Positions 17,010 through 41,044 of a stretch of 64,000 nucleotides of DNA are shown piece by piece. The stretch lies in sequence record AJ697969.1. The stretch is one strand, 5' to 3'. Positions within the stretch are counted from its first letter, which is position 1; every line of letters starts with the position of its first letter. The notes under the pieces were generated by a model. The model had not been told where the DNA came from. It did no database searches and saw nothing but the letters and a program-made list of their open reading frames with translations. Source of the DNA: Pseudomonas phage EL. Both the position numbers and the translations under genes were made by a program.

Positions 17010-17658
17010 TAAGGTGACCTCGTCTAACAAACCTTAACGGGTTTATATAAACCCGTTAACTAGGATTAGGGAATCATAACATCTTCCAGTAATTCATTAT
17101 TCGGTTTCCATTATATGTTCCACTTACCCAATTCTCATTTTGGAGGAGGGGGTAAGATTCTTTAGGACTGAGCGACATGAGCCTACGGCGAGTGGAGTGA
17201 AGGAGTAAAGAATCTTGGGGGAGGAGGCCCTACCGAAGGTAGAGTCCAGAGAAGAGAAAAGAGAAAATCCGAAGGAAAAACCTATTACTCCGTAATAGCT
17301 TTTGCTCTTTATATAAGCCCCGGAGGGGCTTATAAGGCAATAAAATTTAACTTTAGTATTTATTATTATTATAGGAAATTGCTTTTTTATTTAAAAAAGG
17401 AAAAATGAAGAGGAAATGAAAATGGGAAAAATACCTTTTAAATATTCCCTAAATTTCATTTGCTATTAAAGAAGTACCCCTTTCAAAGTCAATTACCCCG
17501 ACCGGCATTCCCGAACAGGGAAGCCGGCGTATAGGGTTTATAATGCAATACTGAAATAGGGTTAATGGATTTCAGTTCTACATTATCATTGGGTAATGAA
17601 AGAATACAGTTATTCGTATTGATATGTTTTGTTAAACCCAGAAGAGGAAGAGTGTGTA
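17010..17658. promoter_or_regulatory. 650-bp divergent intergenic regulatory region with palindromes, a long-range inverted repeat, purine mirror repeats and polypurine tracts
   Basis: no convincing ORF; perfect palindromes at 17034..17059, 17283..17299 and 17311..17337; inverted repeat AAGATTCTTTA (17154..17164) / TAAAGAATCTT (17206..17216) flanked by mirror repeats GGAGGAGGGGG / GGGGGAGGAGG; polypurine runs 17248..17282 and 17393..17433. Confidence 0.4.
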
Positions 17659-18207
17659 ATGACAACGATTGCTTATCGTGACGGTGTAATGGCGGCGGAT
17701 ACTCGTGTGGTCAACGGGGCCGATATGATCAACCTCGGAGAGCAACGTAAGATCCACGAACCGGGGGAAGGAGAGTACTGGAGTGTCAATGGTGACCGTA
17801 TTATCTGTTTTGGTTTGTCGGGGAGTCTGTCGGATCTGTTGGCCTTTAAAGAACTGTTGAGTGAAGGGATTACCTTTAAGACCAAAGCACCTGACCACCT
17901 CGTTGGGGACTCGAATATGCTCTGCGTGGGTGAACAGGGTAATGTTTGGCTGGTTTCAGCATTTAAACAACGAGACGGGAGTATGGTGTTTACGGTGTCA
18001 TGCGTACAACCCCCGTTTGCAATTGGATCGGGGGGTATTTACGCCAGTTCGGTGATGGCGGTGGGTAAAAGTGCGGTGGATGCAGTTAAAGTGGCGTGTA
18101 AGTTGGATATCTTTTCTGGCGGTCGTATTGATACCTGGGAACTCCCCCCTATTCCAGAAACCCCCAGTAAGCGCCCTGAACCGGCCGCCGATAAGACGGC
18201 AAAATAA
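17659..18207 (+). CDS. HslV / proteasome beta-subunit-like Ntn-hydrolase peptidase
   Basis: MTTIAYRDGVMAADTRV (Thr directly after initiator Met, as in HslV TTIVSVRRNG...AGDGQ); FAIGSGGIYA matches the HslV AIGSGGPYA motif; GLSGSLSD ~ GFAGGTAD; RBS GAGGAAG upstream. Confidence 0.7.
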   Translation: MTTIAYRDGVMAADTRVVNGADMINLGEQRKIHEPGEGEYWSVNGDRIICFGLSGSLSDLLAFKELLSEGITFKTKAPDHLVGDSNMLCVGEQGNVWLVSAFKQRDGSMVFTVSCVQPPFAIGSGGIYASSVMAVGKSAVDAVKVACKLDIFSGGRIDTWELPPIPETPSKRPEPAADKTAK

Positions 18208-18399
18208 TCCCTAGGGGGTAAGACCCTCAGAATGTAGGCGATGGAAACTAGAGTGTGTAGGTATTTTATGCCGATGACCTGCATTCACTCCATCGCCGGT
18301 CCTGGTGGGAAGGTTAGGAGTGTTAGACACCCACCACCCCTCAACTGCCCAAGCCTATTCTGTCAGGCTTGAGAGGGTTGCCTACAAAACGCTCCGCCC

Positions 18400-18460
18400 C
18401 TCCAGCTCTATGTCACTATGATGTAGAGCTGGAGGTCTTACTTCTTTTGTTTTTTATTTA
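18400..18460 (+). terminator. rho-independent terminator (stem CCTCCAGCTCTA/TAGAGCTGGAGG plus T-rich tract)
   Basis: 12-bp stem, 12-nt loop, then TCTTACTTCTTTTGTTTTTTATTT. Confidence 0.55.
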
Positions 18461-18560
18461 CCCAGGAGGGAATATCTTATACCGTTAAAGTGACCTGTTT
18501 CCACGCCATGGTTCTCTAGGTCACTGTAAGGGTACAACGTTATTGATCCTCTTGGATGCG

Positions 18561-18617
18561 CTAACGGGTGGTGTTATGGTCATATCGGCGGTTGCCCACC
18601 CGTTAGTCTTTTTTTTG
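18561..18617 (+). terminator. rho-independent terminator (stem CTAACGGGTGG/CCACCCGTTAG plus T8 run)
   Basis: 11-bp stem then TCTTTTTTTTG; lies inside the spurious N-terminal extension of the 18543 ORF. Confidence 0.65.
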
Positions 18618-18713
18618 ATTACGCTAGATAATTTGAAACCTAAATTATTAGCAGGCTATTGGAGAATAGTCCTTTTTAATGACTTCCCTGTAAACCAAAG
18701 AGAGCGATTCGAT

Positions 18714-19676
18714 ATGTCTCAGATTCAATACTACCTCATGGGCGGCGCGGGTATCAACATTGGTGCGGGTTTGAAAGAATATTCCCGTACGCGTGTGAAC
18801 AGTGATGCGGGGATGGTAGGTTTCGATACCAGTGATAAGAACTTCACGGCCGCGTTCCCCATTGAGCAACTCGAAGGGGTGAACGGGAGTGGTAAGGATT
18901 CCACCAAGCACTATGACAAACTCCTCCCCTTCGTAGCGGCTAACCTGAAGAAACACCGTCCCGGTGTTCACAACATCATCGTAGCCAGTACCGCTGGTGG
19001 TACTGGGCGTGTTATGGCGATGATTGCGTTGCGCCTGCTGGTCGAGTCGGGTAAAAACGTCATTCTCTGCCTGATCTCGGAACACACTTCCCTGGTGGAT
19101 AAAGAAAACGCAGTCAATGCCCTCCGTTCCTTTGCTAACCAGTGCCAACCCAATCAGCTGAACCGTCCGGTGTGCTACATGGAGTTCCTCAATACGCCGA
19201 ACCTGACCCGTAAGGAAGTCAACCTTCAGGCGATTGATTCACTGAATCTCCTGAGTCTCCTCTTTGATCCCGGTAATACGGAAATCGATGAGGAAGACAT
19301 TAAACGCTTCTTCAATTACTCGGCGGGGGGTAAAACCAGGCCGGCGTTGAGTCGTATTCATTTCTACGACCAGGATGGTGCAGCGGACTATACCGGTAAG
19401 GTACCGGTCTCGGTCGCCAGCCTGTACCCGAACAACGATGACGTGGTTCCTCGGTTTATGGGATCGGTTTACCGGACGACGGGTATTTTCTCCCCCAACA
19501 GTGATCGTCCGGAGGACATCAAAGAGCTGCACGTGACCCTCGATCACGGTGAAGCCCTGGAAGAACTGGAGAAAGAGATCGAAGGGCTGGAAACGGTTCA
19601 AGCTCAAGCTGCCGTTGACTTCTCTCAACAGAAGGACATTTCGGAAGGATCGAACGATCTGGGCTTCATGCTGTAA
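18714..19676 (+). CDS. phuZ: PhuZ-like phage tubulin/FtsZ-family GTPase
   Basis: MSQIQYYLMGGAGINIGAG (tubulin/FtsZ G-box N-terminal glycine loop) and IVASTAGGTGRV (tubulin T4 signature GGGTGSG-like); size 320 aa with acidic C-terminal tail, as in PhuZ. Start at 18714 chosen downstream of the two terminators. Confidence 0.8.
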   Translation: MSQIQYYLMGGAGINIGAGLKEYSRTRVNSDAGMVGFDTSDKNFTAAFPIEQLEGVNGSGKDSTKHYDKLLPFVAANLKKHRPGVHNIIVASTAGGTGRVMAMIALRLLVESGKNVILCLISEHTSLVDKENAVNALRSFANQCQPNQLNRPVCYMEFLNTPNLTRKEVNLQAIDSLNLLSLLFDPGNTEIDEEDIKRFFNYSAGGKTRPALSRIHFYDQDGAADYTGKVPVSVASLYPNNDDVVPRFMGSVYRTTGIFSPNSDRPEDIKELHVTLDHGEALEELEKEIEGLETVQAQAAVDFSQQKDISEGSNDLGFML

Positions 19677-19692
19677 GACAGACAGTGAATCG

Positions 19693-19752
19693 CTAAGGTA
19701 GGGAGCTCACGCTCCCTACCTTAGCCTTTATTACGCTTTGGGGTATTTTTTA
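19693..19752 (+). terminator. hairpin CTAAGGTAGGGAGC/GCTCCCTACCTTAG followed by T-rich tract
   Basis: 14-bp stem, 4-nt loop, then CCTTTATTACGCTTTGGGGTATTTTTTA. Confidence 0.45.
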
Positions 19753-19814
19753 TAATGAGTTTTTACTAAAATGGGCATTATTATACAGGCTTAATTAAAT
19801 ATAGGGGTTAGAAG

Positions 19815-20108
19815 GTGTCTATAAGCTTCTCTGTTGATTTATCAAGGGGTTACCTATACCGACCTACCGGTTCAGGTAAAAACGTCGTGTTAAGGAAAAT
19901 AGACCGGTTTGACGTGGTACACTGTTTACAGGCATTAGGGTACCACAACCTGAACGAACGCAGTCTGAATCGTCGAGCTATGGTCTTTATTCCGTCTCTG
20001 GAGGAGGACATCACGAAATTCACGATCGGTGTACCGAGTGATGCACAGGTTCGTATTCGTGGGATTGGGAAGTGCTCCCAACGGTTATTGATTACATTTG
20101 TTTATTAA
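19815..20108 (+). CDS. hypothetical protein (GTG start, weak)
   Basis: ORF only; no good RBS. Confidence 0.25.
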   Translation: MSISFSVDLSRGYLYRPTGSGKNVVLRKIDRFDVVHCLQALGYHNLNERSLNRRAMVFIPSLEEDITKFTIGVPSDAQVRIRGIGKCSQRLLITFVY

Positions 20109-20122
20109 GGAGACCTTGTCCC

Positions 20123-20689
20123 ATGTTACTGTTCAATGTGAAGGAGATGGCGAATGGTATCCTCATGCCATCTGAATTGTCTCGGGTAGAACGGGAGACC
20201 ATTATTAAGGACTTGATTGAAACGGCCTTGAGTATCTTCAATAACCCTTCTTTGTGCGACGGGATCCTGGATGACCTGTTGGAGCATTATGAGTTTAACG
20301 TAGGGATACTGAATACCGACCGTATCGTTCTGGATCTCGTAAAGGTCATTAAACACACCGCCCGTAAGCTGGGGTGGGACAGTCGTTTGAAGGCGAAGGT
20401 GGAGTTCAAGCAGGTCGGGAGTGGGTATCATAAAGCCCGTATTGTAATGGATTTGGATGAAACCCTCCAAGCGTTGTCTTCGAATGTAACAGAACCGGTT
20501 CGCCTCAACGACGTTATTAGTGACCATCCAGAAGTCGAGATGCTCAATGAAATCATTTCACTACGATCTAGCAAAGCCCCAAGGAGAGTTCCGGTACTAC
20601 CAGATCGACGTCCAGTGGTTGTTAAAGGAAATCAGGAGTCAGGTTGGGTACCTGGTTACCGGGAGCATTACCGGAAAATCGGTTACTGA
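20123..20689 (+). CDS. hypothetical protein (start at MLLFNVKEM with AAGGAG RBS)
   Basis: ORF; C-terminal 50 aa are Arg/Pro-rich and overlap the next ORF in another frame. Confidence 0.4.
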   Translation: MLLFNVKEMANGILMPSELSRVERETIIKDLIETALSIFNNPSLCDGILDDLLEHYEFNVGILNTDRIVLDLVKVIKHTARKLGWDSRLKAKVEFKQVGSGYHKARIVMDLDETLQALSSNVTEPVRLNDVISDHPEVEMLNEIISLRSSKAPRRVPVLPDRRPVVVKGNQESGWVPGYREHYRKIGY

Positions 20690-20978
20690 ACATTACGACG
20701 AAGTAGCCTTAGGGGTCCTACAGAAAGCCATTGATGAGTGTTTAGTCTTTAACCGCGGCTTTGAGTTGGAAGAGTCTCCTAACGTCTTTCCTCGTAGGCA
20801 AGCGGATAAGTATCTACTACCGGACGATCGAAATGAGTTGGTGATTGATGCAGTAGCTCATTTAAGCCGTTTAATAACCCTCCCCAGCCCCTATACTGCG
20901 TTTAGTCACCCGGTGGTGTACCGGGTGCTGCCGAATGGCAATCTCTTAGTTGGGATCGATAAGAGGGATTTATTATGA
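20520..20978 (+). CDS. hypothetical protein (overlaps the previous ORF by 170 nt in +1 frame)
   Basis: ORF; possible frameshift relationship with 20123..20689. Confidence 0.35.
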   Translation: MTIQKSRCSMKSFHYDLAKPQGEFRYYQIDVQWLLKEIRSQVGYLVTGSITGKSVTEHYDEVALGVLQKAIDECLVFNRGFELEESPNVFPRRQADKYLLPDDRNELVIDAVAHLSRLITLPSPYTAFSHPVVYRVLPNGNLLVGIDKRDLL

Positions 20979-21334
20979 TTACGAAAACCATTCCCCTCGC
21001 GTTGGTGAACCGTTGTTTTACGAACGCTGGCTTAAAGCCTGAGCAGACCTATTCGGTGATAGCGACCCTGGTACATATCTGGCGAATGAATGATCATAAC
21101 GAGGGAATGACCCGGGAGTTGATTTTCAATGAATTGGAATTGGATGAACTGACCGCTCAAACCCTGTGGAACACTCTTCAACAGCCATTACTGGCGATTA
21201 GTCAGCAAATTCGTGAGTTAGCACTGGCTGGGCGATTGGTTAGCTGGAAAGTTCTCCCCCTCACCATTATCTTGGAGATAGAAGATGAAAACCTTGTCCC
21301 ACTCAGTACCTATACCCCCGTTGACCGATCATAA
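20975..21334 (+). CDS. hypothetical protein (119 aa)
   Basis: ATGA start/stop overlap with the previous gene. Confidence 0.45.
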   Translation: MITKTIPLALVNRCFTNAGLKPEQTYSVIATLVHIWRMNDHNEGMTRELIFNELELDELTAQTLWNTLQQPLLAISQQIRELALAGRLVSWKVLPLTIILEIEDENLVPLSTYTPVDRS

Positions 21335-21608
21335 GGAATTCCTGGGGGCGTATAAAGCGTTGTTGAACGCTTTACAGATCCAAGAGAACATTCCTTTCCC
21401 GTTGTCTGCTGGCTTTACGCATCCGGTTGAAAAAGAGAACCAGGCGCTCACCACCCGCTTCTTTCACGATAAGAGCTTGTTCCAACAACTCAAGTTGAAC
21501 CATCCTTTACTTCGGTTACTGGAAGTGAGGGTCCACAACCACATGGCCACCTTTATTTTCGGTTACCCAGAGATCGGTCAAGATGAAAAAGCGTTTCCTC
21601 CGAGTTGA
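21285..21608 (+). CDS. hypothetical protein (107 aa)
   Basis: ORF overlapping its neighbours by 50 and 26 nt. Confidence 0.4.
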   Translation: MKTLSHSVPIPPLTDHKEFLGAYKALLNALQIQENIPFPLSAGFTHPVEKENQALTTRFFHDKSLFQQLKLNHPLLRLLEVRVHNHMATFIFGYPEIGQDEKAFPPS

Positions 21609-21963
21609 TTATGAGCGGATAGCTGAATACGTGTTAGACCGTTCGTTGAAAACTGACGACCTGCTGGTGGATACACCATCGAATGTCATTGACCTGTACC
21701 TCACCCACGCCTTACTTGCTCGTCATTTAAAGCACTTGGAAGCCGCCCTCCAACCATTCAATAGGAACGGTGAATGGGGGTCTTCCCTGGAGATTGAGGG
21801 TGAAGACGAGGATCCCCAATTGACCGAAGTGTTGTTTTCCGATCAAGGGGAAGACATCGTCCACACCTTCCAGGTGAGCTTACGACCGCGTGCGGTGGTT
21901 CACCTTCAGGGTAGAGTCGTGGTGTTACCCCTGATCAAAATAGAAGTGCTTACACGAGGTTAA
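21583..21963 (+). CDS. hypothetical protein (126 aa)
   Basis: ORF. Confidence 0.4.
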   Translation: MKKRFLRVDYERIAEYVLDRSLKTDDLLVDTPSNVIDLYLTHALLARHLKHLEAALQPFNRNGEWGSSLEIEGEDEDPQLTEVLFSDQGEDIVHTFQVSLRPRAVVHLQGRVVVLPLIKIEVLTRG

Positions 21964-21964
21964 T

Positions 21965-22387
21965 ATGGCAGTTACTCCCAGACTCAATGACATTGTGGAT
22001 TTCCAATTGGTACGTAATGGCATCCTTGGGGATGAACGGGTGGGGGTGTTGGTCATCTCAGCCTCTATGACGTATCAAGCGGCTAAGGCCATGGATCCTC
22101 AGATCAATGTAAAACACAGTAACCTGTTTCAATACTTCCAGAATAAAGTGGGTGGGGTAGACGATCCTTCCAAGTATCCGTACTTCGCGGTACAACTCAC
22201 CAATGGGCAATTTGAGGTCATTGGTGTCCCCTGGGTGAACGATGCGACCTTTAAGACTATCGAAGGGCGTATTCGCACCTACACGATCACCAATTACCAG
22301 GAATCCATGGCAGGCCCTATTGCCAACATGCTGCGTAACCTGGGTGCGAGTTATACCGTGCATGATACCACCACGACCAAGAATTAA
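21965..22387 (+). CDS. hypothetical protein (140 aa)
   Basis: ORF starting 1 nt after the previous stop; followed by a strong terminator. Confidence 0.5.
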   Translation: MAVTPRLNDIVDFQLVRNGILGDERVGVLVISASMTYQAAKAMDPQINVKHSNLFQYFQNKVGGVDDPSKYPYFAVQLTNGQFEVIGVPWVNDATFKTIEGRIRTYTITNYQESMAGPIANMLRNLGASYTVHDTTTTKN

Positions 22388-22391
22388 TTCA

Positions 22392-22441
22392 CTACCACAT
22401 CCTCTATTTAAACGGGGGATGTGGTAGAACCTTTATTTTTT
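22392..22441 (+). terminator. rho-independent terminator (CTACCACATCC/GGATGTGGTAG plus T-run)
   Basis: 11-bp stem then AACCTTTATTTTTTCG. Confidence 0.6.
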
Positions 22442-22488
22442 CGTCCCGTGTCTTTTTTAATAGACGTTTTGAACAGAGAGAAAGTCGT

Positions 22489-24591: not shown

Positions 24592-24637
24592 GGGTGGGTT
24601 TACGCTCAGAAACGAGGCGAATCAATAACACTGACAT

Positions 24638-24685
24638 ACCGAGAGAGGAGGCCCTAAGCCTGCCTCTCTCGGTAGTTTTTATTTA
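24638..24685. terminator. hairpin ACCGAGAGAGG/CCTCTCTCGGT plus T-run between convergent genes
   Basis: 11-bp stem, then AGTTTTTATTT. Confidence 0.55.
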
Positions 24686-25847: not shown

Positions 25848-26125
25848 GTGAGTATTTTTCCAGTGATGAACTATTATATAGCACACCACGGTCTCCCGGT
25901 TCGTCCGGGAGTCGTTGGAGTGCAATTTCGAAAATGGTATGAGTTTGAACAAGTACCTATAGCATTTCAGCCTAAAAAGCCGGAATGTGACCAAGTGCTA
26001 GAATTTTTCAAACCCATATTACCAGTGTGAATCGCCACAAGGATATTTGTGTGTGTAGGCAAACACTACGCGATTCCGCTATAGCGAAGCAAACCCTTTC
26101 TTAAGAAAACGATGGAGTTTACCCC

Positions 26126-28138
26126 ATGGCTGTGAATAAAGGTCGTTCGTCCGAATCCACCACTCCGAACTCTTCCTGGACCGATGAAGAAGCCGGCGAT
26201 AACGGTTTGAGCGCCAGCGTACGTCAAGACACCACCGGTCTGTCGGGCCTCTTCAGCCTGACCTCGATGACTTCGGACAACCGCAATATGGTGGAAGTCT
26301 CCGAAGTCGCCAAGATCCTCAAGGAACGTTTCACCCGTATCGCGGAGGCTACCACTCCGGAAGCTCAGCGCAACATCGTTCCGAACGTGGATGAAATGAC
26401 CGCCGGCATCTCCAGCATCCTCCCGGGCCTGGTACTGCACAAAGTCATCAACAACAAACTCTGGGTAATGGGTGTCCTGTTCTCCAACAAGGACCTGACC
26501 ATTTCCTCGGAGCCGATCCGTATCAACACCCTCAACGGTATCCAACAGCAAATCTCGGTGCCGCTGACCCCGACCAACTACGCCAACGAAGCGGTCATGA
26601 AGAACTTGGTGTCTTATTACACCCGTGTGGCGGAACAGCAAGGTGCGAAAGGGGTTGAAGTCATCAACATGGTCGTGGTTGACCTGGAGATGCTGAACCA
26701 CCCGGAAGCCGGCGATCCCAAGGACCGTCCGGCCAAGCTGGCGGGTTACCTCACCAACCAGTGGGAAACCGGTGTTCTGGTCCGTGCGACCATCGAGATC
26801 GCCAGCGCTGGCGTTCCGCTGCCGTCCCCGTTCGCGGATCCGAAGCATCCCTTCGGTAAAGACGGTTGTGCGGAAGCGCGGGTTACCGCTATCCAAGAAC
26901 GTGTTACCAAGGCGTTCACCCTGAGCGCTGCGAACATGGAAGTGGTGGCGGCTACCATCAGCGACCTCAACCGTAGTGGTGGTGTCTCTTCCCAGAACAA
27001 CAGCAAGGAGATCGCACGCGCTACGGCTATCGTCAGCCTGGCAGGTATCACCATGCAGGCTCACCAAGCCAACCTGGCTGCCAGCCGCGGTGCCGCTCAG
27101 CACAATGACCTGATCAATCAGTTCCTGAACCTGACCGGTGGTGTTTACCCGCACGGCTACCGTCCGCTGCACCCGGTGATCACCATGGAAACCGCGTACG
27201 CCGGTGAAATGATGAACTTCAACCAGGGTCTGTTCCCGTTCTTCTTCGGGCTGTACCTGCTGATGACCACCAACACCGACTACGTCTTCTCTGAAGCACT
27301 GCGTAAGGTGAGCGTGGGTCAACGGGGTAACCTGAGTGCACTGGAACCGCGTATCGACAGTCTGCTGGGTGGTGTGAACCCGCCGAACCGTCTGAAACTG
27401 AATGACAAAAACATCACGGATATCGATGTTGTTAACCAATGGATTCGTCAGAACGTTTCGCAACACGCGATCTTCCGTTCGAACATCGTCCTGAATGGTC
27501 CGGATTCCGCGATCAACAACTTCCTCAGCCGGCTGAGCCAGCAAAACCGTTCTAAGGAAGTGGGGATTGTGGTATCGGTGATCGATGCGATGACCAAGAA
27601 CAAGTTCTCTCAGATCATCGAGCAGAACCGTTCGGCGCGCACCGGTTGGACTCCGGAAAAACCGGTCCTGCACCGCACCCCGATCCTGGTGGTCAACGGC
27701 TTGGCTGAAGCGCCCAATGGTAAGAAACTGAATACCTTGGAAGTGGATGAAATGCTGCTGGGCCACTACAAAGGTGCGAACGGTGCCCAGGCGATGATGA
27801 ACTACCTGGCGGTCATGTACGGTGTTACCAACGAAGACCCCAAAGCCCGTTGCCAGAAGCTCAACCTGGAGCTGAACCAATCGCTGTTCAACGGCGCGGT
27901 TCACATCAACAGCTACTCGCAAGCGGCGGTCTGGGATCCGAACTTCATGGCAGCCCTGGCGCAAGCTATGGAAAGCCTGGGTAGCATGAACGCAGCGAAC
28001 TCCGCGGCCAGCTTCCGTCCGAATCAGGCTGTTTATGTGCCGGGTGCAGGTCTGGCTACTACTGCCTTTGCAGGTGGTAGTTCCCTGTCCAACCCGAACC
28101 TCATGAACGCCTTCCTGGGCGGTTTTGCGTTCGGCTGA
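26126..28138 (+). CDS. highly expressed 670-aa protein; candidate major structural protein (phage-nucleus shell/chimallin-like or capsid) - function unproven
   Basis: Strongest codon optimisation in the window (CGT/CTG/AAC/ACC/GGT/CCG almost exclusively); GGAG RBS; own strong terminator; disordered acidic N-terminus and Gly/hydrophobic C-terminal tail. The 632-aa antisense ORF is an artefact of codon bias. Confidence 0.65.
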   Translation: MAVNKGRSSESTTPNSSWTDEEAGDNGLSASVRQDTTGLSGLFSLTSMTSDNRNMVEVSEVAKILKERFTRIAEATTPEAQRNIVPNVDEMTAGISSILPGLVLHKVINNKLWVMGVLFSNKDLTISSEPIRINTLNGIQQQISVPLTPTNYANEAVMKNLVSYYTRVAEQQGAKGVEVINMVVVDLEMLNHPEAGDPKDRPAKLAGYLTNQWETGVLVRATIEIASAGVPLPSPFADPKHPFGKDGCAEARVTAIQERVTKAFTLSAANMEVVAATISDLNRSGGVSSQNNSKEIARATAIVSLAGITMQAHQANLAASRGAAQHNDLINQFLNLTGGVYPHGYRPLHPVITMETAYAGEMMNFNQGLFPFFFGLYLLMTTNTDYVFSEALRKVSVGQRGNLSALEPRIDSLLGGVNPPNRLKLNDKNITDIDVVNQWIRQNVSQHAIFRSNIVLNGPDSAINNFLSRLSQQNRSKEVGIVVSVIDAMTKNKFSQIIEQNRSARTGWTPEKPVLHRTPILVVNGLAEAPNGKKLNTLEVDEMLLGHYKGANGAQAMMNYLAVMYGVTNEDPKARCQKLNLELNQSLFNGAVHINSYSQAAVWDPNFMAALAQAMESLGSMNAANSAASFRPNQAVYVPGAGLATTAFAGGSSLSNPNLMNAFLGGFAFG

Positions 28139-28161
28139 TACGAGAGTGTGCTGAAAGAGTG

Positions 28162-28222
28162 AAGGTTAGGGGGCTTTCGGGCTCCCTAACCTTTATTCCG
28201 CTTTTGTCTTTTTGGAGTTTAT
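28162..28222 (+). terminator. rho-independent terminator (AAGGTTAGGGGGC/GCTCCCTAACCTT plus T-rich run)
   Basis: 13-bp stem with one G-U/mismatch, then TATTCCGCTTTTGTCTTTTTGG. Confidence 0.55.
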
Positions 28223-28225
28223 TCG

Positions 28226-29668
28226 ATGGAACTACCTGAACTGACTCCGAGTCTTTCGTTGGCCATTAAACGGTTAACGGAATACAGTGAAGAAGTGCTG
28301 GATCCCCTTAAGGACTTTGTCGGCTACGCCAGTAAGCTGGATTTTTCCTTGGAGGATGATCCTCGGTTCTCGATGCCGGCCTATCCCGATTTTGAAGACT
28401 ACGACTACCTGCACGATACCAGCCGTCTTAAGCAAGTCTACCTGAATGACTTCGATTTCAATCTGGAAGAAGACCGAGAAGCCCTCAGTCGTTTAACCCG
28501 GATGGAGTTTGAGGGTAATTCGTTTGATACCGTTGCGCGGTGTTTGTGTAAGGACGGCAAGGGACTCCGGGGTAACTACCTCCTGGGTACCGAACGGGTG
28601 TGTCCACGGTGTGGGAGTAAAGCAGAACTCTTCTTGGATCAAGGGGAAGACACCCGGATCTGGCTCAAATGCCCCGAAGGGGTGAAGAAGTTCGTTAATA
28701 TCGGGTTCTTTACGACCTTCTTTAACAATATCAGCATAGGAAACCCGTCCCCCAAGATCAATGTACCGCGTTACTTCATTGATCCTCTGTATCGAACCAA
28801 GGTTAAGAAGCAACGGAATGGAACCCTCATTGCCATTAACCAGATGCTCGGTGACTTGGAGATCCACCATGTCGACCTGAACACGTTCTATGATCACTGT
28901 GATCGGATCATGGAATACATTCTGGTAGGTCCAGGTGAGCGCTGGTCGAAGTACCGGGGAGGGGAAGGTGCTGAGATCCTGGAACTGTATCATCGGTATA
29001 AACACATCGCGTTCTGTAATTACATGAAGGTACCCAGTCGGTACTGCATGGTGCTGGAACGGGTGGGTAAAGAAGTCCGGAGTTATGAGCATCAGCCTGA
29101 AACAGCGAAGCTCTATAACGCCATTGCGGATACCATGAAGTCCAGCAATTGTTATCAGCTCACTGAAAAGGACTTGCAACGCAATGTGGACATTGTGGGT
29201 AAGAACCTGGTGGCGTTAGCTGATCAATTCAGGAGTGTCAATAACCCCAAAGCCGTGTTTAATAAACACGGGATCAACCGTAAGCATGTGTGCGCAGGTC
29301 CGGTGCCATTAACGGGACGGTCGGTGATTACCTCTCAAACGGGTATTATTAATCACTCTGAAGTGATTATGCCGTGGAAGATGGTCGTTACCATCCTGGA
29401 ACAACCCATTACGAACCACCTCTATCGGTTAGGGCATACCCCCCGGAGTGCCCGTAAGCTGATCTATAACGCGGCCTATCGGATCGTTCCAGAAATCGAT
29501 GCGTTCTTACGGCGTGCGGAGGAGAGTCGTAAAGTCCTGGTTCAAATGGGGCGTAACCCCTCGATTGAGTACCTCAGTCGGCGCACCAATTACCTGAGGG
29601 TGAACCGGGATCTGGAAGATGAGAGTATTAAGATCCCCATTACTTCAGTCGGTCCTTACAATGCTTAA
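28226..29668 (+). CDS. RNA polymerase beta' subunit, N-terminal part (exon 1), ending exactly at ...YNA of the NADFDGD catalytic motif
   Basis: RCLCKDGKGLRG...VCPRCGS matches the beta' N-terminal zinc ribbon (E. coli ECLCGKYKRLKHRG..ICEKCGV); C-terminal ESIKIPITSVGPYNA aligns to KAIQLHPLVCAAYNA(DFDGD). Confidence 0.65.
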   Translation: MELPELTPSLSLAIKRLTEYSEEVLDPLKDFVGYASKLDFSLEDDPRFSMPAYPDFEDYDYLHDTSRLKQVYLNDFDFNLEEDREALSRLTRMEFEGNSFDTVARCLCKDGKGLRGNYLLGTERVCPRCGSKAELFLDQGEDTRIWLKCPEGVKKFVNIGFFTTFFNNISIGNPSPKINVPRYFIDPLYRTKVKKQRNGTLIAINQMLGDLEIHHVDLNTFYDHCDRIMEYILVGPGERWSKYRGGEGAEILELYHRYKHIAFCNYMKVPSRYCMVLERVGKEVRSYEHQPETAKLYNAIADTMKSSNCYQLTEKDLQRNVDIVGKNLVALADQFRSVNNPKAVFNKHGINRKHVCAGPVPLTGRSVITSQTGIINHSEVIMPWKMVVTILEQPITNHLYRLGHTPRSARKLIYNAAYRIVPEIDAFLRRAEESRKVLVQMGRNPSIEYLSRRTNYLRVNRDLEDESIKIPITSVGPYNA

Positions 29669-31082
29669 CAATGATTACCCTATTCCTCTACCAGGAGGAA
29701 TTCGTGCAGATAGAAAGGATATACACAACTCCTATTGAACATCCAGAGGAAGTTGGGTTTTATAAACATCCAACATTGCCGATTTGGTTGTCTAAAGACG
29801 ACGATCGGATCCTCACAGAAACAGGTTTCGTGGAACCAAGCATAGGCGGCGAATACAAGTACTACATTCGTCAGCACCTCCATGTGTTGAAACTAGAGAC
29901 ATTTCTTGAGAAGCCCAGCTCAACTATCAAGTTGTGGGGGAATCACAGGGATGGCGACAAGCGCAATAATCACCTGGAAAACTTGGAGTGGTGTACTCCG
30001 TCAATGAATTTGATCCATGCGTTTAAGACCGGTCTTAGGTCGGATAACCTTCCCGGTTTACTCACCGATCTAGAAACAGGTGAGGTCAAATCATTTACGA
30101 GTTTAAGGGAATGCGCTACCTACTTAGGTATCAATCCTGGTACACTCACTGTTTACATGAAATCTGATAGAAAGTATCCGCTCAAGTTTAAGTACTCTGT
30201 GCGTCTAATATCGGAAGAGCCTAGCAAACTGACTGCTGACGACATTGGTAAAGTAAGGAAGGGTGGACCCAAACCTTGCAAGATCGTCAATAAACTCACT
30301 GGCGAAATAAAGCATCTGGCCTTTGAGAAAAGCATTCAGGAACTGTTCGGTTTATCTGAGAGACGTTATCAGCGTGCTTTGAAAGAACGTGGATACGAAG
30401 ACTGGATTTTCGAAGAAGTGAAGACGTATGAAGAATACGTCGAGTGTTTAAAGGATGATAAGGCGAAGACTGTAAAGTCTAACCGACATCTTTCTTTAGT
30501 CAAGGAAAAACAGTTGGCTACAGCTAAGAAGATTGTGGTTACTAACAATCTGACAGGCGAAATAACTGAATTCGACAATCTTAGTGACTTCTCAATGGAG
30601 AATGGTTTCATGATAAGCGAGATCAACCGCGCTTTGAAAACCAAAGATTCATGGAGAGAATTCACATTTAAATATCTGGAATAGGGTAATTGTTAAAGGC
30701 TCACCAGGCACGAAAGTCCTGGATGAGAATCTCTTTAATTGCTGGAACACCCACAAAAGTGAACCACCTTACGTAACCGTAAGGGGACGAAAGTCAGAAA
30801 CAACGGTTCACCTGTCCTACGCTAACCAATAACGCTAAGGGATACTGACAAGGGGCAACCAGCAGCGAAGCCTGTTGTTATTCAACAGGAACGTTCAACG
30901 GCCATTCGATGACCCGTAATCTGATTACGGCGAGAAGTAGGGTAGCAAGCTAATGGCACCCGAAACAGGAGACACCTAATCCCTAACCGGGAATGGTGAT
31001 GATATGGTCTGACCACGGTTTAATAGACCGTGCAGGTGTCTGTGCACACCGGGTAATGAGTAGCGTCATTACTGGACAAGTG
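29669..31082 (+). mobile_element. putative self-splicing group I intron carrying an HNH homing endonuclease ORF, inserted inside the beta' NADFDGD codons
   Basis: 5' exon ends in U (gcT); the proposed intron ends in G immediately before gat ttt gat ggt gat (DFDGD); the 3' ~400 nt (30685..31082) is non-coding and full of GNRA (GAAA) tetraloop hairpins and nested stems; HEG has divergent AT-rich codon usage. Confidence 0.5.
29671..30684 (+). CDS. HNH homing endonuclease with C-terminal NUMOD-like DNA-binding repeats
   Basis: WGNHRDGDKRNNHLENLEWCTPSMN is a classic phage HNH motif (H-N-H with invariant Asn); three helix-turn-helix-like repeats (ECATYLGINPGTLTVYM, ELFGLSERRYQRALKERG, MENGFMISEINRALKT); codon usage distinct from neighbours. 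Confidence 0.75.
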   Translation: MITLFLYQEEFVQIERIYTTPIEHPEEVGFYKHPTLPIWLSKDDDRILTETGFVEPSIGGEYKYYIRQHLHVLKLETFLEKPSSTIKLWGNHRDGDKRNNHLENLEWCTPSMNLIHAFKTGLRSDNLPGLLTDLETGEVKSFTSLRECATYLGINPGTLTVYMKSDRKYPLKFKYSVRLISEEPSKLTADDIGKVRKGGPKPCKIVNKLTGEIKHLAFEKSIQELFGLSERRYQRALKERGYEDWIFEEVKTYEEYVECLKDDKAKTVKSNRHLSLVKEKQLATAKKIVVTNNLTGEITEFDNLSDFSMENGFMISEINRALKTKDSWREFTFKYLE

Positions 31083-31274
31083 GATTTTGATGGTGATTCC
31101 ATGTATGCCATCTTCTTGATTGACTTGGAGTCTAAAGCGAAAGCCTACGGGGGATTAGGTCATCATCAGGTATTGGATAACAACGTTCCCTTCAAGATCA
31201 GCAAGTATGCGGGACAAACCGCTACCAACCTGATGAACTTCAATACCCTCATGCTACAGAAACCGATTGAGTAA
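31083..31274 (+). CDS. RNA polymerase beta' N-terminal part, exon 2 (begins DFDGDSMYAIF...). Alternatively an independently translated fragment 30993..31274 if the gene is split rather than spliced
   Basis: ITGQV-DFDGDSMYAIF matches the beta' Mg-binding motif NADFDGDQMAVHV; in frame with ORF 30993..31274. Confidence 0.5.
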   Translation, partial: DFDGDSMYAIFLIDLESKAKAYGGLGHHQVLDNNVPFKISKYAGQTATNLMNFNTLMLQKPIE

Positions 31275-31931: not shown

Positions 31932-31934
31932 GGT

Positions 31935-31996
31935 GTCTAAACCAAGCAGGGGTGGTTCCCTGCTTGGTTTATTATGACCTTTTATTTTGTCTTTCT
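31935..31996 (+). terminator. rho-independent terminator (AAACCAAGCAGGG/CCCTGCTTGGTTT plus T-rich run)
   Basis: 13-bp stem, 6-nt loop, then ATTATGACCTTTTATTTTGTCTTTC. Confidence 0.5.
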
Positions 31997-32030
31997 ATAG
32001 AGAGCCTTCTTTCTTTAGGGAGTTAACAGT

Positions 32031-33268: not shown

Positions 33269-33290
33269 GGTAGTAAGGGGTAGATTATTC

Positions 33291-35200: not shown

Positions 35201-35269
35201 TCTCCCATCTATTCTCACTGAAAATTCTATCTTTATTGGTTAGGAATTTCGAATTTAAGGTAACCTCTC

Positions 35270-35968
35270 ATGAGTGACAATCAACATCGCAAGTTTACCC
35301 CCCGTAAGAAAACCCTCCTGAATGACTGGAAACAGCCTCATCCAACGACCTTGGAACCTTTGCCGGGAGCAAAGTACCCGGCGCAGGGGATGTTCGAGTG
35401 CAAGAACAGTGGGGCGTTTCCCATTGTCTTCAAGATCAACGACGGCATCTTTGAGAAAGGTTCCAACAGTAACCACAAAGAAGTCGAACTGAACTATTCG
35501 GATCGGGGCGCGCTCTTCGAAGCGATTATTGAGGCCTCGAATGATGCGAACTTTGGGTTCCGTCAGATCCCGATTTCGAAGAAGCAGATGATCTTCTCGG
35601 GTGGGAGCGCGCGTCAATCGGAGAACCCGATTGTTCAAGCGACCTTTACCATCATCCGGGATAAGAACGGTGTTATCCACCTGGGGTACACCAAAGGGGA
35701 TTACAAAGTCCCGCTGGTTTTCCGTGGTTCCAACTTCACGACGGTATACGTCAAGAATGAAGCCGGTGAACGCGTTGAAGACCAGGGTCTGATGTCCCGT
35801 TGGGTAGCTCGGGCCTGGGTGCGTTTCCACCAGGATCTCCTGAATGAGATCGAGCAGGCGGCTTGGGAACCCCCGAAACCGCGTGACGGTGGGGTAAATA
35901 ACAACCGGCAGCCTTCCAATGACTCCAGTTCTGCCACCCACGATGACTTCGATGACGTGGAATTCTAA
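35270..35968 (+). CDS. abundant hypothetical protein with acidic C-terminal tip ...DDFDDVEF (possible SSB-like protein)
   Basis: optimised codon usage; C-terminal acidic-Phe tip resembles the SSB DDDIPF tail; followed by a strong terminator. Confidence 0.5.
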   Translation: MSDNQHRKFTPRKKTLLNDWKQPHPTTLEPLPGAKYPAQGMFECKNSGAFPIVFKINDGIFEKGSNSNHKEVELNYSDRGALFEAIIEASNDANFGFRQIPISKKQMIFSGGSARQSENPIVQATFTIIRDKNGVIHLGYTKGDYKVPLVFRGSNFTTVYVKNEAGERVEDQGLMSRWVARAWVRFHQDLLNEIEQAAWEPPKPRDGGVNNNRQPSNDSSSATHDDFDDVEF

Positions 35969-35980
35969 TTAGACCAAAAA

Positions 35981-36025
35981 GGGTAGGAGGGGTTGCCCCT
36001 CCTACCCGGTCTATTCGTTTGGTTA
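35981..36025 (+). terminator. rho-independent terminator (GGGTAGGAGGGG/CCCCTCCTACCC plus T-rich run)
   Basis: 12-bp stem, 3-nt loop, then GGTCTATTCGTTTGGTT. Confidence 0.55.
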
Positions 36026-36085
36026 GAATATTTTAAACCTACATTATCTTCCCGTAATCCTGGACTATTCTGTTTGGAGTGAACC

Positions 36086-37639
36086 ATGTTTAACATCGAG
36101 GTTAAGCGGAAATCCAAGAAGACGATTAAAGCCATCATTGTTTCGTTGAATGAGAAGAGCCTCCGCTTTAACGGTGATGCAACAATCAAACTTGAACGGG
36201 TGATTAAAGAAAAGGATGCGAGTGATCCTAATCTCTTCAGTTGTTTCAACGAGTATGTGGAGAACATCTTCGATACGGATAAGAAGATTGAACTCTTTAA
36301 GTTGTATGAAAAGGCGTATCAGATTGCCGAAAGTCCTACGTATAAGGACTACCGGGTTGAAATCGCTGAAATTAAACCGATTATCAATGCTATTCTAAAC
36401 CTCATTGATGTTCCCAAGTACTGTAGCTTCATCCAGTATTCCGAACACATGGTCGTTCCTCCTGACCTGAGCGTTGCCTCCAGTAAGGGGGATTACCCGG
36501 AACAAACAACCATTACGGATTACGATTATAAAGAGTTGGTTAAGCTGACCTTTGTGATCCGTTCGGTTTATCCGATCATCTTCTCGTTAATTGCTCGCTT
36601 CGATGCGGCAATGGGAACAGGGTACAGTGAGCAGGTGTGTGGGAGTCTGATTAAAGATAACGCCCACATCGTTAACCTGTATGGGTGGAAGAAGCTTCAG
36701 ACCTATGTGAACTTTGCCTTTGGTAAACGAGGTATACCCCAGCAAGCAGACAGCATTGGGAGTGTAGAGTATTTCGTGGAGCGGGTGCTGTATGATACCC
36801 TCTTCTCCCGGCTGTGCTGTGCGGTCATCCCCGAAACCGAAGAAGGGAAGCACCTGGCCACCGCCATTAACGCTTCGGTACGCCATCATGGATCGATTGG
36901 GGGTGGGTTTAAAGCCAAGGATGCCCGGGAAGGTGAGGATGATAAGCGGTCCCTGTTGGAACGGTATCATATCAACGAAGAGATCAAGGCGGCAAATGAA
37001 ACCGTAGACGCTGAGTATTTCAGTTTAGGGTTGTTTGACGAGAATGACAATGAACGGTACGTGGATCGGTTCAAGATCCCGTGTCTGGGCCTAGGTATAA
37101 AGAATCCCCAGCTGGTGGAACAGGTCTACGACAACATGCCCCCGAACTGGGACATCACGTTGGACAATCATGTCATTACGTTGCTTCAACTGACGTTCGT
37201 CGATGCGATCTCTCCTATGATCTTCTGGAGTTGTGACGGGCATCAACTGCGGGCAGCCATTGCCTTGGCTCAGGTCCGTTTGAGCGAACAAGGGTATCAT
37301 TACCTTCCGTCGGTACTGGGAGCGAGTAATAATCCCGGAGGCATGCGATCCCTTTCGGATGGTTTGCGGTTGAACACCGAAGATAAAGAATTCCTGGTCA
37401 GTATTTGTGACATCCAAAGTCGTAATGACGAAGGACGGTCCTTTAATGAAGCCGTGGAGGTCGCAACGGAGTTCTTGGAAACCTTTGGGAATGGGCAATG
37501 GAAATCGAACCTGGAATATGGGGTATTGGATGATCCTGAAGTCTATCAACGGGTAGAACGCGCTGCGTTGTTCGACCTGGAGATTGATTTGGAAATCAAG
37601 AATGAGTTCATGCGGTTAGTTAGACAAGTCAATACCTGA
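36086..37639 (+). CDS. hypothetical protein (517 aa)
   Basis: ORF; preceded by the AACCTACATTAT motif 47 nt upstream. Confidence 0.55.
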   Translation: MFNIEVKRKSKKTIKAIIVSLNEKSLRFNGDATIKLERVIKEKDASDPNLFSCFNEYVENIFDTDKKIELFKLYEKAYQIAESPTYKDYRVEIAEIKPIINAILNLIDVPKYCSFIQYSEHMVVPPDLSVASSKGDYPEQTTITDYDYKELVKLTFVIRSVYPIIFSLIARFDAAMGTGYSEQVCGSLIKDNAHIVNLYGWKKLQTYVNFAFGKRGIPQQADSIGSVEYFVERVLYDTLFSRLCCAVIPETEEGKHLATAINASVRHHGSIGGGFKAKDAREGEDDKRSLLERYHINEEIKAANETVDAEYFSLGLFDENDNERYVDRFKIPCLGLGIKNPQLVEQVYDNMPPNWDITLDNHVITLLQLTFVDAISPMIFWSCDGHQLRAAIALAQVRLSEQGYHYLPSVLGASNNPGGMRSLSDGLRLNTEDKEFLVSICDIQSRNDEGRSFNEAVEVATEFLETFGNGQWKSNLEYGVLDDPEVYQRVERAALFDLEIDLEIKNEFMRLVRQVNT

Positions 37640-37673
37640 AAGTATCATCCGTAACTAGACAGAGGAAACAAAC

Positions 37674-39110
37674 ATGTCCGAAATGTTGGTGACATTGACC
37701 CGAGCCATTTTTGGTATGGGGAATAGCAACCACGATCACGTTCATCGTCATAACCAACTCAACCTGGACAGCACTGAGGTGGATGACCTCATCATGGAAC
37801 AGGTCAATGGAGGTGTTACCGCGGGTACCCTGAACCGCATTGCTGCCTCCAGCGGTAACCTGTCCCAGCGTCCTCAAGGCTACGTCTCCGTCGAAGAAGG
37901 CTTCGGCGTACGGCGTGGAATTGGACAACTCACGTTCGTTATTGAAAGCAATTCAAACTTCCATTCGGAAATGTGTGTGGTGGGGTACCTCTTTGGAGGC
38001 ACTGCGTCGGAACAAGGTATCTCGGATGACACCATGTTCGTTCCGGTACGGACTTGGTCAACCTTGACGACCAATACCCATGACAGTCAAGGCTTCCCGA
38101 TGACCAAGCGGATGATCGACAGTTCCCATCAGTTCCTCATGGGATCGGTGGATCAGAACAAAGACCTGAAAGCCGTACGTCCGTTGGATGTCGGGAATGA
38201 AGCCTTGGGGTTTGCCGCCAGTGAAGAAGATGGTTCTGAGATGATGTATGCCGGGACGGTGGGGAGCGACCTCAAGAACAACACCTTGATGTCGAAGACC
38301 CTCAACCTCAACCCCACGCATTATTCCCGGGAGTTGCTCAAACTGGCCACCAATGCAGGGTTCCACTCCTCCAATGGCAGTTCGTTGGAAGTGGAACTGT
38401 CCAACGGATTGATCGGCGAATCGATTGGAGAACTCTCCCCGCTCGAAAACCCTTTCATGCGGGCAATGATGCAATCCACCGGTCAGTACATGTTGGGTGG
38501 GTTCCAGGGGTTCAGTATTGGGGAAATCTATCAGGTCTTCGATAACCTGTTGGATGTCATGAACCTCAACCTGTTGAATCCCAGTTCCTTTGCGGAAGAC
38601 AACACCCTGCTCACCAGCAGTGAATATGGGTCTGCGGGTAACCATGAGGTGATTGCTACGGAACTGGCGATGATGTCGGTTCACCTGATGTTGCAGTGTG
38701 GTCTCTCCAGCCTACGGTTCTCCGCCACCAATAACCTCATGGAATATAGCACGATCATGGATGATGGTGTGGGTGTCGCTTTCGTCATCGGTGAAGCCAT
38801 GTCCATGTTGGACAATGACATGTTCGTGGAAAACCGGGTGGAGGACTTCAAGCGTCTGATTGCCCAACACTTCTTCTCGAAATACTCGGGACCTCATGTT
38901 CATTTGAGAACCTTGATGAATATTGAAGTGGAGTGTTACATGTTTGGTGAGATCGTTATTACGATTTCGTTCAATGGGGAAGCCAACGAGAAAACCTTCA
39001 CCAACGCTACCTACTACATTAATCATACCAGCAGCAGCATTGCCGGTAATGAAAACGGCCTGTTGGAAGCCAAGAACTTCCTGACCGGTATTCGTGAATA
39101 CTTCAGCTAA
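37674..39110 (+). CDS. hypothetical protein (478 aa)
   Basis: ORF with GAGGAAAC RBS. Confidence 0.55.
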   Translation: MSEMLVTLTRAIFGMGNSNHDHVHRHNQLNLDSTEVDDLIMEQVNGGVTAGTLNRIAASSGNLSQRPQGYVSVEEGFGVRRGIGQLTFVIESNSNFHSEMCVVGYLFGGTASEQGISDDTMFVPVRTWSTLTTNTHDSQGFPMTKRMIDSSHQFLMGSVDQNKDLKAVRPLDVGNEALGFAASEEDGSEMMYAGTVGSDLKNNTLMSKTLNLNPTHYSRELLKLATNAGFHSSNGSSLEVELSNGLIGESIGELSPLENPFMRAMMQSTGQYMLGGFQGFSIGEIYQVFDNLLDVMNLNLLNPSSFAEDNTLLTSSEYGSAGNHEVIATELAMMSVHLMLQCGLSSLRFSATNNLMEYSTIMDDGVGVAFVIGEAMSMLDNDMFVENRVEDFKRLIAQHFFSKYSGPHVHLRTLMNIEVECYMFGEIVITISFNGEANEKTFTNATYYINHTSSSIAGNENGLLEAKNFLTGIREYFS

Positions 39111-39124
39111 GAGGATAACCGCTC

Positions 39125-40561
39125 ATGCACGAAACCAATGAACTGAACAAACTGTACGAAGCGATGTGTTTGTCGTGGGGCGCGCAGGTTAAAGAACAGG
39201 GACGACTCGTCTTTATGATCGATGGGGAAGAATTCCCACTCCGTATTGATGGGATGACCCTCCACCTTCCGCTGAGCGAAGTCCTGGATGGGAACTGCGT
39301 GGATAAGGTCTTCTTCCACCCGGCCTGTGAAAACATCGTGTCGAAAGAAACGGAAGTGTTCAAGATCATCCGGCGGATGACCTGTATGAAACTGCTGGAT
39401 ACCTTCCGTCGTATTCCGATGGTGTTATTCACCGTTGCAGGCCATAAGCCCAAGAGTACCTGGAACCAACGTATCCACGACATGCTGGAGCCCCTTAAAG
39501 GTGCCAAGCGTGCGGTACGGGATGAACTCAACGCATTGTTCAGCCGTATGCATGTGGAAGTGGAAGAGAATGGGTTGGATAACCGTTTCATTCACTTCAA
39601 GGTATCTAAGGGCGGTGGTACCAGTAAGACCACGGGTCAACGGATCTATTACAAGACCCGTCCGGAGTTTCCGTTCTATACGGAAATCGTTCGTCGTCTG
39701 GCACGTTCGGATGGTCAATCGGATAACCAGACCATTGAAATCAATAACCACACGGTCTCCCGAGCGGCACTTCGTCTGGCCGCCCATATCTTCCAGAACG
39801 TCCTTCCGGCGGTAAACAGTCCCAGTGACTATGAGTTTGAATCGACTTCCCCGGTGGCGTCTCGTCTAGTGTCCTACATGGGGTGCTATGCGGAAATCGC
39901 AGATCAATTGAATAAGATCCAGAATACCTTCCGATCTGATTTCGATAAAGCCGGGTTGTACCCGATTGATCTGAGCTGGACGGAACGCCTGGAAGAACTA
40001 CCGGATATTTATCGCCAAGTCCCAGTACTGGATTACAACAGCCACAACACCCATGATGAAGTCCAGCATCAAGCAGTGAGTCGGAATGACATGGGTGGTC
40101 TGCTGTCGGTTACCAGTACCAACCAACAGGGTGTTTCTCAACATCAATCCCAACCGCAGCACGTTGCAGGAATGAGCGGGGACTATGACGTATCACCTCC
40201 GCAGATGCAAGCGGGAGACCGGTATGTCCGTACTGAGATCGATTACGTCGGTCAACGCGTTCTCCACCATGCGGTTAACCAAACCACCAATAACCCGGTC
40301 GTCTACATCTGTAGCCGTAAAGGGAACTTCCTGCAACGCTCTGAAACCAACATGATGCTCCAGCAAATGGGTATGTTGGGTGGGATGGGTGGTATGATGG
40401 GTGGAACGATGCTGGCCAACGGGATGGTTCAACTGCCGAACGGTATGATCGTGAATCCGCAGATGATGGGGGGTGTTTCGATGCCCACACCTACCGCCGC
40501 ACCGAGTGTATACCCGGACGCCGGTATGGGGTTTGACCTGGGAGCCCCAGGTATCTTCTAA
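39125..40561 (+). CDS. hypothetical protein with Met/Gly/Gln-rich low-complexity C-terminal tail
   Basis: ORF; C-terminus ...MMLQQMGMLGGMGGMMGGTMLANGMVQLPNGMIVNPQMMGGVSMPTPTAAPSVYPDAGMGFDLGAPGIF. Confidence 0.55.
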   Translation: MHETNELNKLYEAMCLSWGAQVKEQGRLVFMIDGEEFPLRIDGMTLHLPLSEVLDGNCVDKVFFHPACENIVSKETEVFKIIRRMTCMKLLDTFRRIPMVLFTVAGHKPKSTWNQRIHDMLEPLKGAKRAVRDELNALFSRMHVEVEENGLDNRFIHFKVSKGGGTSKTTGQRIYYKTRPEFPFYTEIVRRLARSDGQSDNQTIEINNHTVSRAALRLAAHIFQNVLPAVNSPSDYEFESTSPVASRLVSYMGCYAEIADQLNKIQNTFRSDFDKAGLYPIDLSWTERLEELPDIYRQVPVLDYNSHNTHDEVQHQAVSRNDMGGLLSVTSTNQQGVSQHQSQPQHVAGMSGDYDVSPPQMQAGDRYVRTEIDYVGQRVLHHAVNQTTNNPVVYICSRKGNFLQRSETNMMLQQMGMLGGMGGMMGGTMLANGMVQLPNGMIVNPQMMGGVSMPTPTAAPSVYPDAGMGFDLGAPGIF

Positions 40562-40577
40562 GCAACAATAACCTTAC

Positions 40578-40630
40578 CAGTACCTAGCGGGATATCCCGC
40601 TAGGTACTGTGTTTTCTCTATTTTATTCCA
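40578..40630 (+). terminator. rho-independent terminator (CAGTACCTAGCGGGA/TCCCGCTAGGTACTG plus T-rich run)
   Basis: 15-bp stem then TGTTTTCTCTATTTTATT. Confidence 0.55.
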
Positions 40631-41044
40631 GTATTTTTACGCTTGGGTCGTATTACTACGTGCAACGGCCTGGGTCAAATGGGCCTCGTCAATTATCTTG
40701 TAACTTTGCATGCCCGCACAATCCATAAAGGGATCTTCAATCCCATTCAGATAGGCGGTGACCCACAGCATATGGTTTTCAACCCCTTGAACCCTCAGGA
40801 ACCGATAGAAGTCATACCGATAGGCATACAGTTGTGCGTGAGAGACGATTGGAATCTCCTGGGTTTGACGGAGGAGTATTTCCCGTTCGGACCGCACCAA
40901 GACTTTGAACCGTTCAGTAAAGAAGAAATCACGTCCTTCACTGAAGTTAACAATAGACAGTGGCATGGAGAAGATCCTTATCGATGCAGCTAACCATTTT
41001 TGAACCTATATTATTTCTGTGACCCGACATAAGGAATTATCCCA

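Follow-up and report, generated by a model that had tools for sequence, protein, structure and literature searches.

A recurrent AACCTA-N-ATTAT motif in Pseudomonas phage EL is probably an early promoter of EL-like jumbo phages

A short AT-rich motif, AACCTA-N-ATTAT, recurs upstream of genes in a 64,000-nucleotide stretch of Pseudomonas phage EL (sequence record AJ697969.1; hereafter the window, with positions counted from its first letter), and an earlier note on this DNA had suggested that it might serve the non-sigma RNA polymerases (RNAPs) of the phage itself as a class-specific promoter. We find that the recurrence is real and non-random, and that the motif is very probably an early promoter of EL-like (Elvirus) jumbo phages, most likely read by the virion RNAP. 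The motif is statistically enriched, restricted to one strand and to intergenic DNA, conserved at orthologous positions, and matched to a published consensus; it was already published for EL in 2005, and the promoter class has been mapped in phiKZ, AR9, and 201phi2-1. Since the EL motif is in the literature and the class is well characterised, our analysis confirms known biology and adds little to it; a genuine regulatory signal had nonetheless been recovered from sequence alone. What is added is i) a conserved N4-GTGa downstream of the core and degenerate members of the family such as GGTCTATATCAC at position 24; ii) conservation of the motif positions between EL-like phages and the Erwinia phage RisingSun; and iii) an annotation of the window with six putative early transcription units and their predicted starts, including those of PhuZ, the nuclear-shell protein, and non-virion RNAP subunits.

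Occurrence and conservation of the motif

The window holds three copies of the exact form AACCTANATTAT, where 0.05 would be expected, and none of 100 shuffles reaches 3. These three instances are the 12-mers at 18637, 36036, and 41003, where each site is named by the first position of its core. The earlier note had listed four such 12-mers, and all four are present: three lie exactly where they had been placed, while the first, TTCTACATTATC, lies at 17576..17587 rather than 17577..17588, within the site whose core begins at 17575, and has only CTACATTAT (17578..17586) in common with the other three. The 9-mer CTANATTAT alone is weakly enriched (4 matches against 1.22 expected; 9 of 100 shuffles reach 4) and the 12-mer at 2 mismatches is not enriched at all (17 matches against 15.7), so that the signal sits in the exact and extended forms of the motif. 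When the published 19-nt EL consensus WTTTYAAACCTACATTATY is allowed up to 3 mismatches, it matches five times against 0.09 expected, at the four sites of the earlier note and at one further site (26011) upstream of the gene for chimallin, the nuclear-shell protein; the mismatches number 0 at 36036, 2 at 18637 and 41003, and 3 at 17576 and 26011. All motif matches in the window are on the + strand and all are intergenic, in a stretch of which about 7% is intergenic DNA. The distances from motif to ATG at the four sites noted first are 83, 77, 50, and 42 nt, in rough agreement with the 35-80 nt that had been given for them.

From position 1 onward the window runs co-linear with EL-like jumbo phages of Pseudomonas aeruginosa, among them MIZ-Pa99, HHBS8_1, and phiRU, at 97-99% identity, and as a genome-wide proxy we used the complete genome of MIZ-Pa99 (PV472050.1; 209,813 bp, 240 annotated coding sequences), an EL-like Elvirus and Pseudomonas jumbo phage that is 98-99% identical to the window. 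AACCTA.ATTAT has 7 matches in MIZ-Pa99, each of them on the + strand and within intergenic DNA, which makes up 7.6% of the genome; the earlier note had reasoned that a similar frequency inside coding regions would speak against a promoter, and the roughly 92% of this genome that is coding holds no exact match. An iterated 31-nt weight matrix, which converged on sites scoring >17, yields 21 sites where about 0.85 would be expected above a score of 14 in first-order Markov genomes; every one of the 21 is on the + strand and 20 are intergenic, 16-116 nt 5′ of a coding sequence. Their consensus is TtTcAAAcCTAnATTAy-N4-GTGa, in which CTAnATTAy is near-invariant, the successive positions of the TtT block (-23 to -21 from the conserved G) are T in 17, 14, and 18 sites out of 21, and the G 7 nt past ATTAY is present in 20 of 21 (and in 6 of the 6 window sites). 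The genes that follow the 21 sites include none with a structural annotation; the MIZ-Pa99 annotation also includes split RNAP beta/beta′ genes, a nuclear-shell protein, and PhuZ.

A cross-validation matrix trained only on the 15 MIZ-Pa99 sites that lie outside the range of the window ranks six window sites first, with scores of 16.1-32.5 and the next match at 8.8 (Table 1). Two of the six, at 24 and 26011, had been missed by the earlier note; the 26011 site has the top window score with both this matrix and an independent one built from RisingSun sites only (29.6 with the latter), and the site at 24 scores 27.4 with the RisingSun matrix. On the window, the RisingSun matrix places 26011, 24, 17575, and 41003 as the top four, 36036 fifth, and 18637 seventh.

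The 31-nt motif windows show 0 changes in 291 positions among close relatives, compared with 16 in 1002 for the flanks. RisingSun belongs to another genus, with a chimallin 48% identical at the protein level and a syntenic gene order, and it carries the motif upstream of PhuZ (TTTTTACCTCTATATTACCAGGGTG), of the shell gene (TTTTCAACCCTGTATTATTAACGTG), of gp39, which is the counterpart of window gene 36086 (TTTTCAGCACTACATTATTAGTGTG), and of the gp43 RNAP gene (TTTTAGCACTATATTATTAAATTG).

In an unbiased k-mer enrichment, the top intergenic words are TTTATT with T-runs and GGTAGGG/CCCTACC, that is, terminator tails and stems, and AACCTA ranks lower, with 24 of its 66 occurrences intergenic; the promoter is therefore not the most abundant intergenic signal.

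By comparison with mapped systems, the conserved G 7 nt past the core would be the start of transcription or adjoin it; this places a T-rich block near -23 to -21 and an extended -10-like core (AAACCTAnATTAY) between about -19 and -7. Recognition would require no host sigma factor and would fall to the multisubunit virion RNAP, injected together with the DNA. The genes expressed first would comprise gene 88, the HslV-like peptidase, the PhuZ tubulin, and the nuclear-shell protein, together with a gp68-like subunit of the non-virion RNAP and the non-virion RNAP beta/beta′ operon. The genes downstream of the sites, which include non-virion RNAP subunits and none that is annotated as structural, fit an early class.

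Table 1. Putative early-promoter sites and other features of the window. Scores are those of the cross-validation matrix; 5′ untranslated regions (UTRs) and +1 positions are predicted.
Feature	Position	Strand	Core	Predicted +1	Score	Predicted 5′ UTR (nt)	Downstream gene or remark
Early-promoter site	16..46	+	GGTCTATATCAC 24..35	G 42	22.9	46	gene 88..609
Early-promoter site, degenerate	17567..17597	+	GTTCTACATTAT 17575..17586	G 17593	24.5	66	HslV-like peptidase gene 17659..18207
Early-promoter site	18629..18659	+	AACCTAAATTAT 18637..18648	G 18655	17.6	59	phuZ 18714..19676
Early-promoter site	26003..26033	+	AACCCATATTAC 26011..26022	G 26029	32.5	97	nuclear-shell (chimallin) gene 26126..28138
Early-promoter site	36028..36058	+	AACCTACATTAT 36036..36047	G 36054	23.8	32	phiKZ gp68 homologue (fifth non-virion RNAP subunit) 36086..37639; exact WTTTYAAACCTACATTATY match
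Early-promoter site	40995..41025	+	AACCTATATTAT 41003..41014	G 41021	16.1	24	tnpB, then the non-virion RNAP genes
IS200/IS605-family TnpB-only element	41018..42277	+					tnpB 41045..42187; context, not part of the promoter
Hairpin-TTTATT examples	1128..1200, 19677..19814, 22388..22488, 28139..28225, 31932..32030						intergenic

The usual intergenic layout runs from a stop codon through a GC-rich hairpin, a TTTATT tail, the T-block, the core, N4-GTGa, and a UTR to the ATG. The earlier note had placed a terminator or a non-coding stretch ahead of each of its four sites, and this holds for three of them: 17576 is located within a 650-nt non-coding stretch, a terminator-like hairpin with a T-run (18587..18612) lies directly 5′ of 18637, and a terminator-like hairpin (35981..36007) lies directly 5′ of 36036. 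At 41003, on the other hand, a stop codon directly precedes the site with no terminator between.

Some of the downstream assignments concern the non-virion RNAP. A pairwise BLASTP between phiKZ gp68 and the protein of gene 36086..37639 is not significant (E = 0.53); we assign the homology through the PHROG family phrog_3209, which each of the two matches along its entire length. Genes 42362..44668 and 44708..47818, downstream of the 41003 site, are homologous to phiKZ gp71 and gp74, respectively, both of them subunits of the non-virion RNAP.

Relation to published promoters and alternative readings

Table 2 of PMC7058600, which cites Hertveldt et al. 2005 (J Mol Biol 354:536), lists WTTTYAAACCTACATTATY as the predicted promoter consensus of EL. 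This is the same motif as that of the window sites, with nothing essential different, and the N4-GTGa extension puts it in register with the rest of the promoter family. The early motif of phiKZ consists of an extended -10 box with a T-rich stretch upstream of -19 (PMC8244752), and every jumbo phage that encodes an RNAP has a motif of this kind ahead of its early operons (PMC7598289). We find early-type elements in phiKZ with the same layout as in the window, TTTcAgAtcTATATTAC-N4-GTG, examples being aatttcagattTATATTACtaagGTG and, directly upstream of gp68, aaatttgagatcTATATTACtaacATG. The early promoter of phiKZ, a TATATTAC core preceded by a T-rich block, and the EL type have in common the layout TTTcA-N3/4-(C)TAyATTAy-N4-GTG, a position on the main coding strand ahead of early operons, and a site before the gp68 gene. 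They differ in that AAACCTAC of the EL type is replaced by AGATCTAT or similar in phiKZ; in that the EL-type motif contains GC, in a genome of 49% GC compared with 37% for phiKZ; in that the EL-type core usually ends in T and the phiKZ core in C; and in that the phiKZ sites are experimentally mapped whereas those of the EL type are known from sequence.

The 3′ half of the AR9 early promoter, AAATATATATTAT-(6N)-G+1 (PMC5312081), is TAnATTAT as in the EL type, and six nucleotides separate it from a conserved G that is the mapped +1 in AR9, but the AR9 element is wholly AT-rich, belongs to a uracil-containing genome, and has another upstream half. CTAnATTAy can be aligned with both TATATTAC of phiKZ and TATATTAT of AR9. 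The predicted early promoters of OBP, N1M2, and 201phi2-1, TTTYARR...ATATTAY-N4-GTG, are found where early operons begin and are considered phage-specific (PMC7058600 Table 2; PMC11512511). From the T-block to the TATTAY core the intervening bases are specific to each lineage, and are C-rich in EL and RisingSun.

Several points weigh against this assignment to the early class and to the virion RNAP. The polymerase, its timing, and the precise +1 are all taken over by homology from systems in which they have been mapped, and we found no 5′-end or time-course data in the literature on EL-like phages. One of the MIZ-Pa99 sites lies inside an annotated minus-strand open reading frame (ORF), and another has no gene of at least 180 nt across the 764 nt downstream. 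The scores of the 18637 and 41003 sites (16-18) are within the range of best matches in shuffled windows (maximum 19.7), so that the support for these two comes from position and orthology; and the spacer of the 41003 site is 1 nt shorter in the MIZ-Pa99 allele. Finally, the beta and beta′ genes of the non-virion RNAP are transcribed from middle promoters in 201phi2-1 (PMC11512511), and gene identity alone therefore does not fix the promoter class. The two MIZ-Pa99 sites with no obvious gene behind them, at 102326 and 164411, are both strong and both outside the range of the window; they may be promoters of non-coding RNAs or may reflect mis-annotations.

It is the 201phi2-1 observation that favours a promoter of the middle or late class, read by the non-virion instead of the virion RNAP, a reading we consider improbable. 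In phiKZ a weak AT-rich or TACT element near -22 to -24 marks middle promoters and TATG at the transcription start site marks late ones (PMC7598289; PMC8244752), and both differ from the EL-type motif, which aligns position by position with the early elements of phiKZ and AR9; moreover, the motif is followed by genes for non-virion RNAP subunits, whose expression is needed before the non-virion enzyme exists, and the absence of annotated structural genes behind all 21 sites also argues for the early class. Marginally less probable still is a non-promoter role, as the binding site of a phage regulator or as an element of the 5′ UTR that acts in the transcript. In its favour, the support assembled here is of sequence and position, and the distance from motif to ATG varies over 16-116 nt; against it stand the homology in sequence and spacing to elements with mapped starts in phiKZ, AR9, and 201phi2-1 and the typical placement of the motif after terminators and at the starts of operons. 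A variable distance from promoter to ATG is, in any case, normal for promoters.

The resemblance of TAnATTAT to TATAAT, at sites upstream of genes, could suggest a host sigma-70 promoter with ATTAT as its -10 box, but this is very improbable: the T-rich block lies only about 6 nt 5′ of the core, the conserved AAACCTA and N4-GTGA are not sigma-70 elements, and phiKZ-type phages transcribe independently of the host RNAP (PMC7598289). Consensus scans of the + strand, in which a sigma-70 promoter was sought and rejected, gave no pair of hexamers at a spacing of 16-18 nt overlapping the four sites. The least probable reading of all is that an AT-rich word recurs by chance, as might be argued from the marginal enrichment of CTANATTAT and the near-expected count of the mismatched 12-mer; the exact and extended forms are far above expectation, lie on one strand and in intergenic DNA, and are orthologous across genera, which excludes chance. 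The proposal of the earlier note, a class-specific promoter for the non-sigma RNAPs of the phage itself, is thus well supported by the restriction to one strand and to intergenic DNA, by the orthologous positions, by the architecture in common with phiKZ and AR9, and by the lack of sigma-70 geometry.

The TnpB element at the 41003 promoter

The earlier note had linked the 41003 site to the start codon of tnpB, an attribution that needs correcting. The TnpB element, about 1.26 kb long, is extra relative to MIZ-Pa99 and HHBS8_1; it starts 3 nt past the ATTAT of the 41003 core, shows no target duplication, and sits within the 5′ UTR of gene 42362..44668, the beta-like gene of the non-virion RNAP. 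Its protein has the Pfam domains OrfB_IS605, Cas12f1-like TNB, and HTH. The insertion is present in two related genomes (phiRU and IR-QUMS-PaBa1), and six relatives have an empty site. In the empty-site genomes of MIZ-Pa99 and HHBS8_1, the promoter is about 76 nt 5′ of the ATG of the RNAP gene, and the 41003 promoter therefore belongs to the non-virion RNAP operon; tnpB was inserted later, as a hitch-hiker with a left end that happens to supply TTCT-GTGA. The RNAP gene as annotated in MIZ-Pa99 (41025..43388) begins only 19 nt beyond the first base of the promoter motif; a more plausible start is the shared ATG some 57 nt beyond that, which is the one used in HHBS8_1 and which agrees with window ORF 42362..44668.

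The element falls between the core and the predicted +1 of the promoter of the essential non-virion RNAP operon, and with its left end the consensus initiation region TTCT-GTGA is restored. One could imagine an adaptive or targeted placement: the element would make use of a promoter of the virion RNAP, because the host RNAP does not transcribe these phage genomes; tnpB mRNA and guide RNA would be made from it within the first minutes of an infection; and the element would home into empty-site relatives at co-infection, with the 5′ UTR of the RNAP gene as the target of the guide. We regard this scenario, which we draw from the position and sequence of the insertion, as unlikely. The closest relatives of the TnpB protein (51-54% amino acid identity) are found in other chimallin-encoding, nucleus-forming jumbo phages, and in the three of these that we checked there is no consistent association of tnpB with an early-promoter core: the tnpB relative of Klebsiella phage Miami has GATATTATTTAG 24 nt before its ATG; that of Raoultella phage VB_ZK_P1 has nothing similar to the promoter core upstream; and in Stenotrophomonas phage BUCTxx100, ATATTGT-AAAG-GTGA overlaps the ribosome-binding site and is ambiguous.

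Terminators, non-coding stretches, and other mobile elements

GC-rich hairpins, often with GGGTAGG/CCTACCC stems and followed by TTTATT(TTTT), are found in intergenic regions throughout (examples in Table 1). TTTATT is the most intergenic-enriched 6-mer, with 56 of 174 occurrences intergenic, and in MIZ-Pa99, 33 of 60 intergenic copies come directly after a hairpin with a folding free energy (dG) of at most -12 kcal/mol. A similar hairpin-TTTATTT lies upstream of gp29 in RisingSun, where T-rich runs are also found upstream of the DNA polymerase and gp34 genes. The combination of hairpin and TTTATT looks like a phage-specific terminator signature.

The HslV-like gene is flanked by two unusually long ORF-free stretches, 17009..17658 (650 nt) and 18208..18713 (506 nt), which contain strong hairpins (for example 18399..18435) and in which related records annotate only tiny ORFs; both stretches are candidates for non-coding RNAs or unannotated small genes. 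A scan of the window against Rfam returned a group I intron (RF00028, 54.9 bits; match 30681..31032, within the region 28226..31274) as its sole match, with nothing at the motif sites. This intron and an ORF for an HNH/NUMOD1 homing endonuclease (29671..30684) lie directly 3′ of the RNAP subunit gene 28226..29668, which suggests that the RNAP gene at 28226..31274 is split by an intron. The non-virion RNAP beta′-like ORF 44708..47818 encodes 1036 amino acids, compared with 677 for phiKZ gp74, and has a LAGLIDADG homing-endonuclease domain at residues 466-539, in a stretch with no counterpart in gp74 that is probably an intein. Together with the TnpB element, the group I intron and the probable intein make three different mobile elements in or beside the non-virion RNAP genes of the window.

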